Assembly: GCA_001818495.1 (NCBI GenBank)
Contig: MHKS01000005.1
Span: 250,038-314,037 of the forward strand
Direction: 5' to 3'
DNA length: 64,000 nt
Source: Candidatus Komeilibacteria bacterium RIFOXYD1_FULL_37_29
GTDB taxonomy: Bacteria; Patescibacteriota; Patescibacteriia; UBA1558; GWA2-36-10
Within the stretch, counting starts at the first letter, position 1; each line of letters starts with the position of its first letter. The position numbers and the translations under genes were made by a program. Of this stretch, positions 16,161 to 64,000 are shown in pieces. The notes beneath the pieces are model-generated. The model was not told where the DNA came from and ran no database searches. It was given only the letters and a program-made list of their open reading frames with translations.

Positions 16161-16233
16161 ATGAATCCCGTTAGAAATTCAAATTGTATTACTAATGGGA
16201 TAATATAAACAAGTATAAATTTCTAACGGGATG
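16161..16233 (+). promoter_or_regulatory. perfect 15-bp inverted repeat (atcccgttagaaatt / aatttctaacgggat) abutting the nrdR start codon; the left arm lies inside a mini-ORF MNPVRNS...
   Basis: Left arm 16165-16179, right arm 16218-16232; nrdR ATG at 16231. An ATG at 16161 opens atg aat ccc gtt aga aat tca... (15 codons). Confidence 0.5.
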
Positions 16234-16704
16234 AACTGTCCGGTTTGTGCTAATAAAGATACTAAAGTAGTAGACTCTCGTCTGGGTGGCGAGGGTTTTA
16301 GTATTCGCCGTCGTCGTTTATGTGCCAAATGTAGTTTTCGTTTTTCTACAGTGGAAAAGATGGAAATCTTGGATTTGACCGTGATCAAACGCGATGGTCG
16401 TCGGGAAAATTATAATAAAGAAAAATTAATCAGAGGTCTTAGAACATCTTTAGAAAAAAGACAGTATTTGGAGGATGATTTTTATAAATTGATCAACGAG
16501 ATTGAAAAAGATATTCAAAAAGACGCTAAAAACGAGATAACTTCTAAAAAAATTGGTGAAATAGTCATGAAGCAGCTGAAATCTTTTGATCAGGTGGCTT
16601 ATATCCGCTATGCTTCAGTTTATCGGTCTTTTAAAGATGTCCAGACATTTCAAAAAGAACTCAATCAACTACTGAGAAAAAAGAAAATCAGGCCTCGCTT
16701 GTAG
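16231..16704 (+). CDS. nrdR: transcriptional repressor NrdR
   Basis: Canonical N-terminus MNCPVCANKDTKVVDSRLGGEGFSIRRRRLCAKCSFRFSTVE (zinc ribbon) followed by an ATP-cone region. Confidence 0.95.
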   Translation: MNCPVCANKDTKVVDSRLGGEGFSIRRRRLCAKCSFRFSTVEKMEILDLTVIKRDGRRENYNKEKLIRGLRTSLEKRQYLEDDFYKLINEIEKDIQKDAKNEITSKKIGEIVMKQLKSFDQVAYIRYASVYRSFKDVQTFQKELNQLLRKKKIRPRL

Positions 16705-16716
16705 GCTACGGTCGAG

Positions 16717-16751
16717 GGAAAATAGTTATCCACTTGTGGGCTATTTTTTTT
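16717..16751 (+). terminator. putative intrinsic terminator after nrdR
   Basis: Imperfect hairpin gaaaatag..ccac/gtgg..ctatttt followed by a T8 run (16743-16750). Confidence 0.5.
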
Positions 16752-16779
16752 CATGTTAAGATCATATTACTTTGACAAT

Positions 16780-16952
16780 TCAATCAGGGAAGTGAGGTGT
16801 GAATCCTCTACAGTCCTAGCTACGGTAAGCTCCATGCAAGTATTATGGGGACAAGTCCGATACCTGAGATATTTGCTTTCTCCTAAGGAGAGAAGAGCTA
16901 AATTTATTAACCAATAACTTTAACTCTGCTTTTCTTAGGGCAGAGATTTTTT
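16780..16952 (+). promoter_or_regulatory. cobalamin (B12) riboswitch-like leader with terminator expression platform
   Basis: aatcaGGGAAgtgaGGTGtgAATCCtctaCAGtCCtaGCtACgGTaagc (16783-16830) matches the conserved cobalamin-aptamer core (GGGAA..GGTG..AATCC..GC.G.CC..AC.GT). A B12-box-like agtccgatacctg lies at 16854-16866. Terminator hairpin ctctgc/gcagag plus T-run at 16924-16952. Confidence 0.6.
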
Positions 16953-16978
16953 GTATATAATTTATAATTTAAAATATT

Positions 16979-17065
16979 ATGAACCCCGTTAGAAATTCAT
17001 AAAATATAGCGGGGGAATAAAGAGTAAATATAATATTATGAAAGTTACTAAAATTTTTAACGGGG
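16979..17065 (+). promoter_or_regulatory. second copy of the start-codon-flanking hairpin plus MNPVRNS mini-ORF
   Basis: atg aac ccc gtt aga aat tca taa at 16979-17002. Left arm ccccgttagaaatt (16984-16997) pairs with aatttttaacgggg (17052-17065; 14 bp, one G.U). The loop contains the ATG at 17038. Confidence 0.5.
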
Positions 17066-18837
17066 CGAAAAAAATTATTCTTATTATTTTGGCCATAATT
17101 ACTTTGGTTATTCCCAGTTTGATTTTGGCAGACAATAATACCACCATTAGTTATTTAAAAGGACAAAATCAAAATGCCTGGATTAGTCAGGCTCTTACGG
17201 CTGCTTCAGTAGAAGAAGTGGATATTTCCTATCTAGACTATCAAACTACTGACTTGATGACAGCTGCTAAAAATATTTTGGTTTTAGCCGCTGTAAAATC
17301 TCCGGAAACAGTCAAAATAAATCAGCTAGTAGAAGTTATAGTTACTAGCAAAAATAATGGCCAATTTGGTTCAGTAGATTTATTAAATGATGATTTTTGG
17401 GCTATTTTAGCTTTGGCCTCAGTCAAGCATTTAGATAATACTCAAGATGTTAAAAATTTTATTTTAGAGCACCAAAACAGCGACGGTGGTTGGAGTTGGG
17501 CCAAAAATGGCGCCTCTGATAGCAACGACACAGCCGCCGCTATTATGGCTTTACTTGATTGGGGACTTACTAGCTCATCAACCGAGATCACCAGAGCTTT
17601 GGGTTATTTAAAGAGCGTTCAAAATGATGATGGTGGTTTTGCTTATGATATAGGTAGTCTATCTGATGGAGCTTCGACCGCTTGGATTATGGCGTCTTTA
17701 AATAAAGCAGAGATTAGCGCTAGTAGTTGGCAAAAAAATAATAATAACCCCGTAGCTTTTTTAGAAAATCTTAGACAAGATGACGGGTCATTTTTGTGGA
17801 TGCCGTCTGATGACCACGGTTCTAGTATGGTCACAGCTTATGCTTTATTAGCCCTAAGTGGCCAGAGCTATCCAGTAAATTATATAGACATAGGTACAGA
17901 AGACGAAGAACCGATTTCTGGTCATAGTTTGCGGATTGAAGGGCCAGAGGGCACTATTTGTTTGGCTAGTGGCTTACAGGCCCAAACAGTTTTGGATTTA
18001 TTGGAATTGGGCGCTGAGGTCTGTGATTTTGAATATGTGCTTCAAGACAGCTCTTATGGTACTTATGTTTCGGCTATTGGTGGCTTGAGTGGTCAGGGGA
18101 TGAATGGCTGGCAATATTTTGTCGATTGGCAACCGGCTATGGTAGCGGCTCCTGATTATATTTTAGAGGGTCATCAGGGTGTCTTGTGGGCTTATGGTGG
18201 TTGGCCTTTTTATCCGGTCAGAGTAGAAATAAATAATACCCGTTTTCAAACCGGAGATACTTTGCTAGCTAGTTTCAATTATTATGATGGAGAAAAGTGG
18301 CTACCGCTTGCCAGTCAAGCTGTGATTTTTGGTAGCGATACCTATCAAACAGATAATTTGGGTAAATTTATTTTTACTTTAAACACGGACGGCATTTGGC
18401 CGCTATTTTCTCAACAGTCCGATCAGTATGTTAGAAGTAATCGGGAGTATATTATTGTTGGTAGTGGAGTGTCTAAAGTAGTGGACTTATCAGTCAAAAT
18501 AGAATCTGGTAGTGGTGGAGTAGGTGATAATACTATTGCTTTTAGTATTGATAAATCTAGCATTGATTTTGGTACCTTAAAACCCGGCCAAGCAGCTGAC
18601 ACTATTGTTTCGCTGGTTAATACCGGCAATGTGGATATTCATATTGAAGCCAGTGTCTTGGGTGATCAGCTTTTTCAAAATTTTACTAGCTTAGATCAGA
18701 ATTTATGGGAAGATTATAATATAGCTTTGTCTAGCAGTGCTTCTCGTCCAGTCAATGTCGGATTGTCTGTCCCTACTACTTTTAATACCCCTGGTCAAAA
18801 GGCCGGTCAATTGATTTTTTGGGCCACTAGTCAATAA
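17038..18837 (+). CDS. secreted/membrane-anchored transcobalamin-like protein: prenyltransferase-like alpha/alpha-toroid repeats + DUF4430 (transcobalamin-like C-terminal) domain + Ig-like C-terminal domain; candidate B12-capture protein
   Basis: N-terminal signal/TM KKIILIILAIITLVIPSLILA. Toroid repeats SDGGWSW, DDGGFAY, DDGSFLW. DUF4430-like block SLRIEGPEGTI...TVLDLL...SSYGTYVSAIGGL..GMNGWQYFVDWQPA..APDYILEGHQGVLWAYG. Preceded by the cobalamin-riboswitch-like leader. Confidence 0.6.
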   Translation: MKVTKIFNGAKKIILIILAIITLVIPSLILADNNTTISYLKGQNQNAWISQALTAASVEEVDISYLDYQTTDLMTAAKNILVLAAVKSPETVKINQLVEVIVTSKNNGQFGSVDLLNDDFWAILALASVKHLDNTQDVKNFILEHQNSDGGWSWAKNGASDSNDTAAAIMALLDWGLTSSSTEITRALGYLKSVQNDDGGFAYDIGSLSDGASTAWIMASLNKAEISASSWQKNNNNPVAFLENLRQDDGSFLWMPSDDHGSSMVTAYALLALSGQSYPVNYIDIGTEDEEPISGHSLRIEGPEGTICLASGLQAQTVLDLLELGAEVCDFEYVLQDSSYGTYVSAIGGLSGQGMNGWQYFVDWQPAMVAAPDYILEGHQGVLWAYGGWPFYPVRVEINNTRFQTGDTLLASFNYYDGEKWLPLASQAVIFGSDTYQTDNLGKFIFTLNTDGIWPLFSQQSDQYVRSNREYIIVGSGVSKVVDLSVKIESGSGGVGDNTIAFSIDKSSIDFGTLKPGQAADTIVSLVNTGNVDIHIEASVLGDQLFQNFTSLDQNLWEDYNIALSSSASRPVNVGLSVPTTFNTPGQKAGQLIFWATSQ

Positions 18838-19428: not shown

Positions 19429-19596
19429 GGAGAGGTAGCAGATCCCGCGTAGCGGGACCCCGCTTTGCGGGGGTGGTTTAGAAATAGTAAGTTGATAATT
19501 TCATTTAGTTTTGGAGAGGTGGCAGCTCCCGCGCAGCGGGACCCCGCTTTGCGGGGGTGGTTTAGAAATAGTAAGTTGATAATTTCATTTAGTTTT
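19429..19596. repeat. two tandem 84-bp units, each beginning with the first 8-9 nt of the downstream tRNA-Ser and carrying twin GC-rich hairpins
   Basis: Units 19429-19512 and 19513-19596 (ggagaggt[a/g]gcag[a/c]tcccgcg[t/c]agcgggaccccgctttgcgggggtggtttagaaatagtaagttgataatttcatttagtttt). Three differences between units. Confidence 0.9.
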
Positions 19597-19686
19597 GGAG
19601 AGGTGCTAGAGTGGTTGAATAGGGTGCTCTCGAAAAGCACTAGTCCTGAAAGGGACTCGGGGGTTCAAATCCCTCCCTCTCCGCCA
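19597..19686 (+). tRNA. tRNA-Ser (anticodon CGA), class II with long variable arm, CCA encoded
   Basis: Hand-folded cloverleaf. Acceptor GGAGAGG/CCTCTCC; D stem CTA/TAG; anticodon stem GTGCT/AGCAC with loop CTCGAAA; variable-arm hairpin AGTCC/GGACT; T arm GGGGG-TTCAAAT-CCCTC; discriminator G plus CCA. Confidence 0.9.
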
Positions 19687-20051
19687 TCCTTCGCTAAAGC
19701 TACGGAATGACTAGCCATATGTTATATTATACTTACATTTTATTAAGCTCAAAATCTCATATTTTTTATTTTGGTTCAACGAATAATTTAAAAAATAGAT
19801 TGGAGCTGCATAATAGCGGCAAGGTAACATCAACTAAATCGCATATACCTTGGAAATTAGTTTGGTATTGTGTATTTGAAACGGAAAAACAGGCAAGAGA
19901 TTTTGAGCTTTATTTAAAAACAGGGTCAGGAAAATCTTTTGCTTATAAAAGACTTATTTCCGTGGCTTTAGAGAAGGATTTCAGGGAAGGGAGAATAGGT
20001 AGTCCGAAGCGGAAGCCTTAGCTTTTGCGAAGGATACCTCCCTCTCCGCCA
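19687..20051 (+). mobile_element. 365-bp GIY-YIG gene cassette bounded by 14-bp inverted repeats and a 15-bp duplication of the tRNA-Ser 3' end
   Basis: cctccctctccgcca occurs at 19672-19686 (tRNA 3' end) and again at 20037-20051. IR-L tccttcgctaaagc is at 19687-19700 and IR-R gcttttgcgaagga at 20021-20034 (1 mismatch). Confidence 0.55.
19707..20021 (+). CDS. small GIY-YIG (URI-domain) nuclease family protein
   Basis: YYTYILL...IFYFGSTNNLKNRLELHN...E...K matches the GIY...YIG...R...E layout of COG2827-type proteins. The start may instead be the ATG at 19719. Confidence 0.8.
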   Translation: MTSHMLYYTYILLSSKSHIFYFGSTNNLKNRLELHNSGKVTSTKSHIPWKLVWYCVFETEKQARDFELYLKTGSGKSFAYKRLISVALEKDFREGRIGSPKRKP

Positions 20052-40554: not shown

Positions 40555-40638
40555 ATGCTTGAATTTCTAATTAATTAAGCTATAATTATTAATACGACGT
40601 AGAATAATTTAGCATAAAAGTAACTTTTTGTCAAAGCT

Positions 40639-63590: not shown

Positions 63591-63655
63591 TAAAATATAC
63601 GTGCTCGGTTAGAAATTTGTGGTAATAACCGGGCTAACAATTAATTTGATACTTT

Positions 63656-64000
63656 ATGCTTGATAATAAAATTTCTAATAGGACAGAAGATAGACACAAA
63701 CATTTTGAAAGGCCCACTACACAGCGGCCACCGTCCATGTTTAACCTGACTTTATGGGCTATTTTTGTCAGTCTAGCGGCTGGTTTTGGGGGTTATTTAT
63801 TGGCCAATTATATACTGCCGAGCAGTAATACCAATTATTTTAGCGTCGATAATTTAGGTCGAAATATCAATGTTGATATTGATCAACCTATGGTAGATAT
63901 TGGTAATCAACATCAAAAAAGCATAGCGGGAGTTTATAAAAAAGTAGCTACGGCTACTAGTATTGGCCAGACTATTTTTTCCCAAGAAGATTTTTTGGGA
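63656..64000 (+). CDS. membrane-anchored hypothetical protein, 3' end outside window
   Basis: ATG at 63656. I read 115 stop-free codons to the window edge, including TM LTLWAIFVSLAAGFGGYLLANYIL. Absent from the ORF track because it has no stop. Confidence 0.55.
   Translation, partial: MLDNKISNRTEDRHKHFERPTTQRPPSMFNLTLWAIFVSLAAGFGGYLLANYILPSSNTNYFSVDNLGRNINVDIDQPMVDIGNQHQKSIAGVYKKVATATSIGQTIFSQEDFLG

Follow-up and report, generated by a model that had tools for sequence, protein, structure and literature searches.

Results

Inverted repeats at the starts of nrdR and the DUF4430 gene

In the window, by which we mean the whole 64,000-nucleotide stretch that was analysed, nrdR lies downstream of ftsZ and is followed by a cobalamin riboswitch (aptamer 16745-16885, terminator 16924-16945) and the riboswitch-controlled gene for a DUF4430/prenyltransferase-like protein. 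The starts of nrdR and of the DUF4430 gene each carry a pair of inverted repeats, yCCCGTTAGAAATT / AATTTCTAACGGGr, of 14-15 bp, perfect or near-perfect. These two copies are 818 nt apart, the second being downstream of the riboswitch terminator, and have in common a 21-mer, atgaa[t/c]cccgttagaaattca, which starts at 16161 and 16979. The arms of copy 1 (16165-16179 and 16218-16232) are 15 nt long, 100% complementary and separated by 38 nt, and those of copy 2 (16984-16997 and 17052-17065) have a single G.T position and enclose an ATG at 17038. The parts of these copies, and of a third, decayed copy that the sequence-only reading of this DNA had overlooked, are as follows.

16161-16208, plus strand: copy 1 mini-ORF (MNPVRNSNCITNGII, then stop), consisting of the original nrdR start (ATG 16161-16163), left repeat and loop
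16162-16165, plus strand: copy 1 left target-site duplication TGAA, the same as 16232-16235
16166-16179, plus strand: copy 1 left terminal inverted repeat TCCCGTTAGAAATT, T/A-ended type
16180-16217, plus strand: copy 1 loop, 38 nt, with internal box TAATGGGA at 16193-16200
16218-16231, plus strand: copy 1 right terminal inverted repeat AATTTCTAACGGGA, whose last base, A, forms the nrdR ATG (16231-16233) with the duplicated TG
16232-16235, plus strand: copy 1 right target-site duplication TGAA, in nrdR codons 1-2
16979-17002, plus strand: copy 2 mini-ORF (MNPVRNS, then stop), consisting of the original start codon of the DUF4430/prenyltransferase-like gene and the left repeat
16980-16983, plus strand: copy 2 left target-site duplication TGAA, its right counterpart being CGAA (one change)
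16984-16997, plus strand: copy 2 left terminal inverted repeat CCCCGTTAGAAATT, C/G-ended type
16998-17051, plus strand: copy 2 loop, 54 nt; box TAGCGGGG at 17007-17014; ATG 17038-17040 as replacement start, sharing the frame of the right repeat and the gene
17052-17065, plus strand: copy 2 right terminal inverted repeat AATTTTTAACGGGG, translated in the new N-terminus (..K I F N G..)
17066-17069, plus strand: copy 2 right target-site duplication, now CGAA, still TGAA in the related locus L131
63604-63617, plus strand: copy 3 (decayed) left repeat CTCGGTTAGAAATT
63670-63683, plus strand: copy 3 (decayed) right repeat AATTTCTAATAGGA, read as ..K I S N R.. of the ORF from ATG 63656

The sequence-only reading had described a long stem whose 5' arm is overlapped by a mini-ORF and which reaches into the start region of the following gene. 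This anatomy was read correctly, and the complementary arms at both gene starts were confirmed. The predicted RNA stems have energies of -22.9 kcal/mol (z = -3.9) and -18.1 kcal/mol (z = -2.95), and the copy 1 box can pair with the outermost 8 nt of the left repeat, one position being G.T. Copy 3 has arms 52 nt apart with 2 mismatches per arm and the ATG of the downstream ORF (63656) between them; no mini-ORF and no stable predicted stem (z = -0.44) were found there. The 13-mer CCCGTTAGAAATT occurs in the window three times exactly and once with one mismatch, while about 0.002 exact occurrences are expected (128 kb, both strands) and shuffled sequence gave 2.4 matches even with two mismatches permitted. 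The sequence ttagaaattca upstream of rpmB (about 40557-40567, minus strand), which had been proposed as a relative, was rejected as a further copy: the 11-mer stands alone, lacks both the CCCG and a second arm, and its 10-nt core with at most one mismatch occurs at chance frequency in the window (17 found, 13.8 expected). Rfam searches with gathering and E-value thresholds returned only the cobalamin riboswitch and sub-threshold microRNA hairpin matches. In line with the earlier remark that it was not recognised as a described motif, the repeat pair matches no Rfam family and was found in no paper of the literature searched.

Empty and filled sites in related genomes

In two close relatives, L129 and L130, the order ftsA-ftsZ-nrdR-riboswitch-DUF4430 is kept and both elements are absent. 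The empty nrdR site of these loci reads ftsZ stop, 1-3 nt and ATGAA(C/T)TG.., and the empty DUF4430 site reads ..ATGAAAAAA(A/T)TTATTCTT. At nrdR, L129 has ...gataaT followed by ATGAACTGTCCGG, and the window has ...gataaA followed by ATGAA, the element and TGAACTGTCCGG. At the DUF4430 gene, the empty orthologues read ...aataacATGAAAAAAATTATTCTT (MKKIIL...), and subtraction of the element and one duplication from the window sequence leaves ATGAAAAAAATTATTCTT. At both genes, the empty site is exactly the filled site minus the element and one copy of the duplication. The proteins differ accordingly at their N-termini, DUF4430 beginning MKKIIL.. without the element versus MKITKISNGVKK.. with it; more generally, orthologues with the element begin M(K/Q)ITKISNG(V/A/G)KK... 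and those without it MKK....

The absence of the module from L129 and L130 bears on two regulatory interpretations. The module had been taken to control nrdR and the DUF4430 gene, yet the orthologues in L129 and L130 lack it and keep the cobalamin riboswitch and terminator. Copy 2 as expression platform of the riboswitch was rejected likewise, the terminator stem and leader remaining where copy 2 is missing. L131 has both elements, with loops homologous to those of the window, and L132 and L133 have decayed copies.

The repeat pair in other genomes

The repeat pair was found in at least 119 genome loci, distributed among Patescibacteria, Planctomycetota, Omnitrophica, KSB1, Elusimicrobia and other phyla. 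The repeats are 14 bp long, with a conserved outer part, yCCCGTTAG, and an inner part that is variable but matched between the arms; short elements measure 59-87 bp (66-82 bp for the window copies). Among the matches listed, 4-nt direct repeats flank 74 of 117 copies, against 12.9 in a shuffled control. This test was run with k = 4 and the boundary at the 14-bp repeat, and other registers gave about 0. The identical duplications among the matches listed are TGAA/TTCA in 44 copies and mostly TNNA in the remainder, and 37% of the short copies listed are without an identical duplication.

A bias of the motif toward start codons had been expected, and it proved to be strong. The base preceding the left TGAA is A in 40, G in 4, T in 1 and C in 0 of the matches listed (background A 27%; p = 6e-18), and among these matches the left TGAA with its preceding base is always a start codon. 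Such near-exclusivity exceeds a simple preference for TGAA and needs either strong selection or a targeting step. Position 9 of tRNA-Pro is occupied in 8 loci. Among the matches listed, loop and downstream ORF point the same way in 56 cases and opposite ways in 5 (p = 6e-12), and the internal box (at most 2 mismatches) is present in 62 of 95 copies in the sense direction and in 5 of 95 in the antisense control; substitutions in the box have an ordinary transition:transversion ratio (26:12). Six viral matches represent one chance match inside a coding region without CCC/GGG ends, and carriage by phage was rejected.

The start codon available after insertion differs with the type of repeat. In 19 of the 25 T/A-ended copies among the matches listed, the ATG formed at the junction is the first in-frame ATG of the downstream gene, whereas an in-frame ATG in the loop is found in 35 of 59 C/G-ended versus 2 of 25 T/A-ended copies (matches listed; Fisher p = 9e-6). 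An open frame coming from upstream runs through the element in 7 of 90 copies listed.

These data bear on the proposal that the module is a dedicated cis-regulatory RNA, in which an upstream ORF and a sequestering hairpin co-regulate nrdR and the B12-related gene. Two copies only 818 nt apart, at nrdR and at a riboswitch-controlled gene, and with stable predicted stems, speak for it. However, the repeat pair stands in front of at least 95 genes that are unrelated to one another and come from many phyla, housekeeping genes among them, with 114 Pfam families of which none occurs in more than two genes; it is therefore not a module common to ribonucleotide-reduction and cobalamin genes. Target-site duplications flank it, and it is missing at orthologous loci that keep the riboswitch. 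An upstream-ORF or leader-peptide attenuator was rejected for want of functional coherence (the 114 families among the 95 downstream genes, matches listed) and of conservation at orthologous loci (L129 and L130). NrdR boxes, which are tandem 16-bp palindromes of the type acaCwAtATaTwGtgt, have no counterpart here; as an NrdR operator the repeat was rejected because it is unrelated in sequence, non-palindromic, variable in spacing and situated at genes without nrd function. We regard a dedicated cis-regulatory RNA for nrdR and the B12-related gene as very improbable. The mini-ORF exists in copies 1 and 2, as had been said, but its standing as a regulatory peptide falls away, since a duplicated start codon joined to the left repeat explains the ORF.

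The single G.U of copy 2 had been offered as a sign that pairing is preserved in RNA. Counted on the sense strand, the arm mismatches comprise 7 G.U, 12 A.C and 18 others; there is thus no G.U bias, and the G.U of copy 2 is no evidence for RNA-level selection. By these wobble counts, no such selection on the long stem was seen, which also weighs against a cis-regulatory RNA. Symmetric variants of the arms do occur, and they are equally expected for transposon ends.

Least probable of the explanations considered is a pair of DNA-level sites, either operators whose arms bind a transcription factor or the ends of a recombinase-invertible promoter segment. The AT-rich segments between the inverted arms do contain -10-like hexamers, but a promoter scan was negative in both loops, and the arm spacing of the short forms is continuous from 31 to 60 nt and beyond, which is incompatible with a fixed protein geometry. 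A segment of 31-54 bp is too short to invert, and neither idea predicts direct-repeat flanks or empty sites.

A longer element with the same termini encodes a GIY-YIG nuclease

Repeat pairs separated by 250-280 nt enclose a GIY-YIG nuclease gene of 85-98 aa, intact or degraded, in about 62-75 of 88 cases. These long forms are 280-306 bp, have the same termini and are filled by one gene, that of an approximately 88-aa nuclease of the UPF0213/SLX1 type (84-98 aa, catalytic domain only). The nuclease ATG is 14-35 nt from the start of the long element, the stop is a TAA within the right repeat in 28 of 55 long forms, and the 4-nt duplication is identical in 29 of 55. All 40 aligned ORFs matched PF01541 and kept the catalytic Y, Y, R, H and E residues; the long form thus has the GIY-YIG catalytic domain with its conserved Y, Y, R, H/Y, E and N. 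The predicted fold (pLDDT 95) best matches UPF0213 BH0048 and SLX1 rather than I-TevI (Foldseek E = 4e-5 to 4e-4 for UPF0213/SLX1, about 2 for I-TevI). The family, which in places carries the wrong annotation "excinuclease ABC subunit C", has about 4,400 clusters (50% identity) that reach E <= 1e-10. The long element of L233 has its nuclease ORF beginning at the host ATGAA, and the host TspO gene begins at the rebuilt start, in which the A precedes the duplicated TG. Indirect evidence of transposition comes from five pairs of long elements whose interiors share 85% identity or more and whose flanks are unrelated.

The association of the nuclease with the repeats was also seen from the protein side. 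When family members were picked by a protein search blind to DNA, 5 of 5 had yC(C/A)CGTTAGA...TCTAACG(G/T)Gr termini, and proteins with only 48-67% identity retain identical outer termini. No long form with these termini was found in the 64-kb window. The GIY-YIG gene in the window (19719-19985) is unlikely to encode the cognate enzyme, its own 20-nt repeats being unrelated. Short and long forms have only termini and duplication length in common, and an origin of the short forms by internal deletion of the long forms was rejected, there being no similarity past the termini. Known insertion-sequence families (DDE, HUH, serine or tyrosine recombinase) were also rejected, because the sole ORF between the repeats is GIY-YIG. 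The IS91-type gene at L036 is itself an insertion target.

Because the long forms with the same termini encode the nuclease, the window copies would be gene-less derivatives of a small nuclease-encoding element, and we infer that the GIY-YIG protein moves both forms. More tentatively, and with rather less assurance than for the mobility of the family itself, we propose that the long forms may be autonomous transposable elements and that their only protein, the approximately 88-aa SLX1/UPF0213-like nuclease, may be the transposase. A less probable alternative is that another transposase, or gene conversion of the homing type, moves the repeats and that the GIY-YIG gene is a passenger or accessory nuclease. 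In favour of this alternative, the protein has no separate DNA-binding domain, and the repeated use of tRNA-Pro position 9 is homing-like. GIY-YIG enzymes serve in homing or repair and are not known to act as transposases. A survey of the superfamily lists no transposases (PMC1564403), which likewise favours a passenger. Against it, the ORF occupies the interval between the repeats exactly, its end lying within the right one, the outer termini are kept in spite of the divergence of the proteins, and they were present in every family member of the unbiased search. Furthermore, in 0.9 Mb of loci, unpaired arms and arms far apart had no transposase gene next to them other than the IS91-type gene at L036; the ORFs there are RibD, peptidases and the like.

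Conservation of the window copies

The arms of both window copies are nearly unchanged in L131, where the DUF4430 protein is only 62% identical. This conservation, unlike what a purely selfish relic would show, suggests constraint after insertion, by exaptation or repeated homogenisation. An exapted regulator would be an element of mobile origin that is now retained because the stem and mini-ORF, with pairing between the left repeat and the box, tune translation. Such a view adds a selected function to the mobile-element reading, and the two are compatible; an example would be initiation dependent on ribosome traffic from the native ribosome-binding site. Besides the conservation of the arms next to a diverged protein, it is favoured by the predicted stability of the stems, by the orientation of the loop and the sense-strand conservation of the box (matches listed), and by a G-to-A change in the left arm of L131 that breaks the pairing with the right arm and perfects the match to the box TAATGGGA. 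The arm mismatches, however, have no G.U bias on the sense strand, several copies (CA-ended types) have a G-to-A change at the terminus that gives a better start codon and costs a base pair, and the transition:transversion ratio of the box is ordinary. The module is also absent from the close relatives L129 and L130 and has decayed in L132, L133 and window copy 3. Taken with these observations, exaptation appears unlikely, though less so than the passenger alternative.

Discussion

It is very likely, judging from the sequences, that each window copy belongs, as a non-autonomous and MITE-like form, to a family of tiny mobile elements that is very widespread. The copies have terminal inverted repeats, a duplication of fixed length and presence or absence at orthologous sites; the short forms are too small for a mobility protein, and a larger element with the same termini encodes a nuclease. 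We infer the mobility of the family from these hallmarks and from the empty sites. The two intact window copies are probably old and immobile. No description of such an element was found in the literature, which was searched by sequence and by concept, and the smallest known insertion sequences are about 0.6-0.7 kb.

How the gene that is hit could stay in use can be envisaged from the structure of the junctions. Insertion strands the native start codon, and ATGAA with the left repeat then reads MNPVRN..., giving the mini-ORF; in long elements, the nuclease ORF starts where the mini-ORF of the short copies starts. For nrdR, a new ATG is made from the A that ends the right repeat and the duplicated TG. 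The DUF4430 gene instead uses the loop ATG, from which the frame continues through the right repeat, so that the product gains about 10 residues (MKVTKIFNGA) before the old MKKIIL signal peptide. A ribosome travelling from the native ribosome-binding site through the mini-ORF may open the mRNA stem and stop just upstream of the new start. Translational coupling of this kind, with the mini-ORF melting the stem, is a possible way for the host gene to stay translated; what is kept would be host expression by coupling, not regulation by B12 or dNTPs. As for the nuclease, it probably acts on a hairpin or cruciform formed by the repeats, as SLX1-type nucleases do on branched DNA.

The Correia elements of Neisseria are bacterial MITEs of 100-155 bp that alter the 5' ends of genes. 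Like them, the elements described here are small and present in many copies, have terminal inverted repeats and a short target-site duplication, are co-transcribed with neighbours and create an expression signal at the junction of repeat and duplication. Unlike them, they are 59-87 bp with a 4-bp, T-first duplication, lie exactly on start codons (or the 5' end of tRNA-Pro), which get rebuilt, have identical termini in several phyla, and have a partner element that encodes a GIY-YIG nuclease and not a DDE transposase. The palindromic elements of Rickettsia and the 'byp' elements of Magnusiomyces mitochondria are short palindromic mobile insertions tolerated in or at coding sequences, and there, as here, flanking direct repeats matter to the read-out of the host gene. 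In contrast, only a minority of the present copies is translated through (7/90, matches listed), and ribosome hopping is not indicated, the host gene restarting at a rebuilt or supplied start codon.

GIY-YIG homing genes such as those of I-TevI and the phage Seg proteins resemble the long form in being selfish genes with the nuclease as sole product and recurrent target sites. The element protein differs in being a bare catalytic domain of approximately 88 aa with no DNA-binding module and a fold nearer UPF0213/SLX1, and the long form differs in being bounded by inverted repeats and a 4-bp duplication and in having gene-less derivatives. Its best matches in sequence and fold are UPF0213 BH0048 (1zg2), EF2693 (1ywl) and the SLX1 nuclease domain, none of which is known to be linked to inverted repeats or mobility. 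By analogy, the cutting of branched DNA by SLX1 suggests how an inverted-repeat element might be recognised. Translational control by leader peptides is exemplified by the erm and cat leaders, and T4 gene 38 has a split ribosome-binding site; in these systems, too, a hairpin hides the start of the next gene or sets its spacing, and one of its arms is overlapped by a short ORF. In the present elements, by contrast, the peptide and stem arise incidentally from the duplication of a start codon and from the end of a transposon, and there is no ligand, no stalling signal and no functional coherence among the host genes.

For the window itself, these findings remove a regulon of nrdR and B12 that was tempting but wrong, and they correct the annotation: a transposon is the source of the 71-nt gap between ftsZ and nrdR and of the first 10 residues of the DUF4430 protein. 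The reading would also account for numerous N-terminal extensions (..KISNGVK..) and short upstream ORFs in these genomes. The family would be a very large one of minimal mobile elements in the ultra-small genomes of Patescibacteria and in other phyla, adapted, if the reading is true, like its gene-less derivatives, to landing on the first bases of genes (the ATG of ORFs, position 9 of tRNA-Pro). The nuclease would then borrow the expression signals of the host gene, and the 5' end of that gene would be rebuilt from the repeat terminus and the duplication; the elements would be a case, occurring in nature, of insertions mending the gene that they enter. If the long forms are autonomous, no self-mobilising DNA element described so far would be as small; their length is under half that of the smallest known insertion sequences, and their enzyme would belong to a class outside the recognised prokaryotic transposases. 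If the nuclease is indeed the mobility enzyme, it would represent a new transposition chemistry, set a lower size limit for autonomous elements, and, as a compact enzyme specific for sequence or structure, might be of practical use.

Repeat pairs at gene starts

The order of features in the window is ftsA, ftsZ, nrdR, a cobalamin riboswitch, a hairpin and a DUF4430 gene, with repeat pairs at the starts of nrdR (copy 1, 16162-16235) and the DUF4430 gene (copy 2, 16980-17069).

Features of the window locus and of the third repeat pair
16165-16179 / 16218-16232, arms of copy 1 (15 nt, perfectly complementary, 38 nt apart)
16231-16704, nrdR (Zn-ribbon_NrdR and ATP-cone domains)
16745-16885, cobalamin riboswitch
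16924-16945, terminator-like hairpin
16984-16997 / 17052-17065, arms of copy 2 (complementary apart from a single G.T position)
17038-18837, secreted protein of 599 aa (prenyltransferase-like and DUF4430 domains)
63604-63617 / 63670-63683, arms of a third, weaker pair, with the ATG (63656) of the next ORF between them

Both pairs reported in the sequence-only reading were recovered. The 13-mer CCCGTTAGAAATT has three exact and one single-mismatch occurrence in the window, far more than chance, and the predicted RNA stems are stable (copy 1, -22.9 kcal/mol, z = -3.9; copy 2, -18.1 kcal/mol, z = -2.95). The ttagaaattca that had been related to them (40557-40567, minus strand), 5 nt upstream of the rpmB ATG, is an isolated 11-mer consisting of the left repeat's inner portion followed by CA; it lacks the CCCG and a partner arm, was not counted as a copy, and probably reflects chance or a purine-rich ribosome-binding region.

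The riboswitch, terminator and prenyltransferase-like/DUF4430 gene are followed by a membrane protein of ~187 aa (window 16745-18837; loci L126-L133). This riboswitch-DUF4430-membrane protein unit is kept beside ftsA-ftsZ-nrdR in several Patescibacteria, and may represent a B12-capture system.

A scan of one genome per species for exact matches to CGTTAGAAATT-N30-60-AATTTYTAACG returned at least 119 loci, where by our own estimate ~0.3-4 would be expected by chance. The matches listed belong to Patescibacteria of many classes, Pirellulales, Sedimentisphaerales, Phycisphaerae, Omnitrophica, KSB1, Elusimicrobia and a few others, and no Rfam family matches the module. Downstream of 95 of these copies we counted 114 Pfam families, each seen at most twice, among them gyrase A, pol III delta', Mur ligase, FtsK, pyruvate kinase and pilins. 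Because the downstream genes are so diverse, the proposed link of the module to ribonucleotide reduction and B12 was removed.

Insertion hallmarks and empty sites

All copies among the matches listed have 14-bp terminal repeats, yCCCGTTAGAAATT. Just outside the arms, 4-nt direct repeats are identical in 74 of 117 copies listed, compared with 12.9 in a shuffled-partner control; other boundaries or lengths gave about zero identical copies. The duplicated tetramer is TGAA or TTCA in 44 copies and mostly TAAA, TTTA, TCAA, TAGA and similar in the remainder. In the variant arms that occur elsewhere within these loci, both sides show the matching change (GACAT, GAGAT, GAAGT, GAAAC, CAC...), and the conserved portion is therefore the outer yCCCGTTAG.

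The NrdR of the window is encoded identically in GCA_001818445.1. Homologues of the DUF4430 protein (55-67% identity) fall into two N-terminal groups, one beginning MKK(I/L/F)IL... and the other M(K/Q)ITKISNG(V/A/G)KK..., the latter resembling the window's MKVTKIFNGAKKIIL. The DNA of syntenic ftsA-ftsZ-nrdR-riboswitch-DUF4430 loci from relatives (L129-L133) was compared with the window.

Empty and filled sites at the two gene starts
L129 and L130, ftsZ-nrdR junction: ftsZ stop, 1-3 nt, ATGAA(C/T)TG(T/C)CC; element absent
L129 and L130, DUF4430 gene start: ...ATGAAAAAA(A/T)TTATTCTT; element absent
Window, ftsZ-nrdR junction: taaA ATGAA[66-bp element]TGAACTGTCC
Window, DUF4430 gene start: ATGAA[82-bp element]CGAAAAAAATTATTCTT
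L131, both sites: element present, loops recognisably homologous to those of the window
L132 and L133, DUF4430 gene start: decayed copies

At nrdR and the DUF4430 gene alike, removing the element and one copy of the duplication from the window restores the empty-site sequence, indicating that the mini-ORF (MNPVRNS in copy 2) is the original start codon followed by the left repeat. The anatomy of an upstream ORF and a stem holds, but a regulatory module for nrdR and a B12-linked gene is not supported, given the unrelated downstream genes and the absence of the element at L129 and L130.

Start codons are rebuilt or supplied by the element

Among the copies listed, the left TGAA is preceded by A in 40, by G in 4, by T in 1 and by C in none (background A, 27%; p = 6e-18); the TGAA duplication always lies within a start codon. 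Within the loop, 3-13 nt past the left repeat, part of the right terminus recurs (TAACGGGG or nearly so); it is complementary to the left repeat's outer half. This internal box occurs in the sense orientation in 62 of 95 copies (antisense control, 5 of 95), and the loop is oriented along the downstream gene in 56 cases and against it in 5.

Two designs provide the host gene with a start. In T...A-ended elements the terminal A and the duplicated TG form an ATG (19 of 25), as in the nrdR copy. In C...G-ended elements the junction would yield only GTG, and 35 of 59 carry a loop ATG that reads in frame through the right repeat into the gene, compared with just 2 of 25 T...A elements (p = 9e-6). 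The DUF4430 gene and the ORF at 63656 have this second design, whose N-termini read M-x(1-8)-ISNG(V)-K.... In four copies the terminal G is changed to A on the right arm alone, giving a better start codon at the cost of one base pair. At two pilin-like genes (L017 and L068) the loop ATG and right repeat supply the leader, MPSKRKFLTG directly before the FTLIE motif at L017; the insertion has in this way come to form the prepilin leader peptide.

The start-codon niche would reflect selection, with the nuclease described below expressed from host signals and the host unharmed, possibly together with some targeting.

Pairing in RNA

Oriented by the downstream gene, mismatches in imperfect arms are G.U in 7 cases, A.C in 12 and other in 18. 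Since there is no sense-strand G.U bias, the G.U of copy 2, which had been read as a sign of pairing at the RNA level, is uninformative. Most substitutions in the internal box are A>G or C>T and would retain wobble pairs; the transition:transversion ratio of 26:12 is an ordinary one.

That the element has been exapted as a translational module is compatible with a mobile origin and is a live rival. The arm mismatches give no sign of pairing being kept on the transcript, but the L131 nrdR copy (1210-1290, compared with window 16161-16235) has a G>A change in the left arm, TCCCATTAG, which breaks the match to the right arm and pairs perfectly with the internal box TAATGGGA, and the arms are nearly unchanged between the window and L131 although the adjacent protein is just 62% identical. 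For these two reasons we retain exaptation; the L131 change, a single case, hints that the hairpin of left arm and box may matter. Translational coupling through the mini-ORF is plausible from the sequence: translation of the stranded mini-ORF would open the stem, and ribosomes would pass to the new start a few to ~40 nt downstream.

A long form encodes a GIY-YIG nuclease

In the loci examined, neither the space between distant arms nor the surroundings of unpaired arms contained a conventional transposase. In L036, a Bacteroidales MAG, two CCACGTTAGAAATT arms 265 nt apart surround an 88-aa GIY-YIG ORF. Scanning metagenomes for canonical arms spaced 250-280 nt apart returned 89 loci, 88 of which were scored; in ~62-75 of these the interval is a single ORF of 85-98 aa with the GIY-YIG signature, and some are degraded. 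These long forms (280-306 bp) share the termini of the gene-less short form. The nuclease ORF opens with an ATG 14-35 nt into the element and in 28 of 55 stops at the TAA within AATTTCTAACGGGG; the 4-nt duplications are identical in 29 of 55. The proteins are 48-67% identical to one another, retain the catalytic Tyr, Tyr, Arg, His and Glu, and all match PF01541. In five pairs of long elements the interiors share at least 85% identity but the flanks on both sides are unrelated.

As an unbiased control, five family members were picked from a protein search by source name only. All five nuclease genes are bounded by yC(C/A)CGTTAGA...TCTAACG(G/T)Gr, with inner arms that vary between elements and match within each (GAAATT, GAGGCC, GAAGTT, GAGAC). 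At L233 the nuclease ORF begins at the host ATGAA (MNHVRENIMWYTY...) and the host TspO gene at the rebuilt right-end A|TG; this ORF is the full-length counterpart of the MNPVRNS mini-ORF.

At E <= 1e-10 the family comprises 7,842 of 8,000 scored clusters in a 90%-identity collection and 4,401 representatives in a 50%-identity library, under source names including "GIY-YIG nuclease family protein", "putative endonuclease" and "excinuclease ABC subunit C". Five proteins (P0244, P0254, P0271, P0289 and P0339) have 200-655 aa or two matched stretches despite a full-length match to the ~86-aa profile, probably because gene calls run from host genes through the element or because copies are in tandem. 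In a confident structure model (pLDDT 95) the fold most resembles UPF0213 BH0048 and the nuclease domain of the branched-DNA endonuclease SLX1; I-TevI is a distant match. The GIY-YIG protein would move both forms, perhaps by cutting a hairpin or cruciform formed by the repeats.

Other targets and related elements

Eight long elements from metagenomes (L144, L155, L158, L165, L180, L185, L193 and L208), mostly with G...C-ended arms, occupy position 9 of tRNA-Pro genes, which between them have three different anticodons. The right terminus ...AACGGGC and the duplication (TGTA or TGTG) rebuild the tRNA 5' end, and ARAGORN predicts an intact tRNA-Pro beginning within the repeat. Copies thus survive, at start codons and tRNA-Pro genes alike, where terminus and duplication restore the 5' end of the target. 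In L036 (3642-5160), an IS91-family (Y2) transposase gene carries two CAC-variant elements as insertions, one short and one with a GIY-YIG gene.

A second kind of small GIY-YIG element occupies 19686-20035 of the window.

Features of the second small element
19686-20035, 20-nt inverted repeats ATCCTTCGCTAAAGCTACGG / CCTTAGCTTTTGCGAAGGAT, 90% complementary, 310 nt apart
19719-19985, GIY-YIG ORF of 89 aa between these repeats

Its ORF is 41% identical to that between the CCACGTTAGAAATT arms in L036. The element directly follows tRNA-Ser(cga) (19597-19686), whose 3' end flanks it as a direct repeat (19669-19686 / 20034-20051). This suggests that inverted repeats around a bare GIY-YIG gene are a general architecture with several terminus types. 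Directly 5' of tRNA-Ser are two tandem 84-nt units (19429-19596; 96% identical); the opening 8 nt of each are those of the tRNA (GGAGAGGT), and each bears two GC-rich hairpins. These units may belong to a further family of small insertions, one that duplicates a tRNA 5' end.

The literature searched, which is incomplete in coverage, yielded no account of elements of this kind; an earlier one may exist. The element family is widespread, and the window contains three of its copies: two old, intact ones that lack the gene, and a third that has decayed. The most interesting reading, to which we give about even odds, is that the family represents a new type of minimal transposable element, one based on GIY-YIG.
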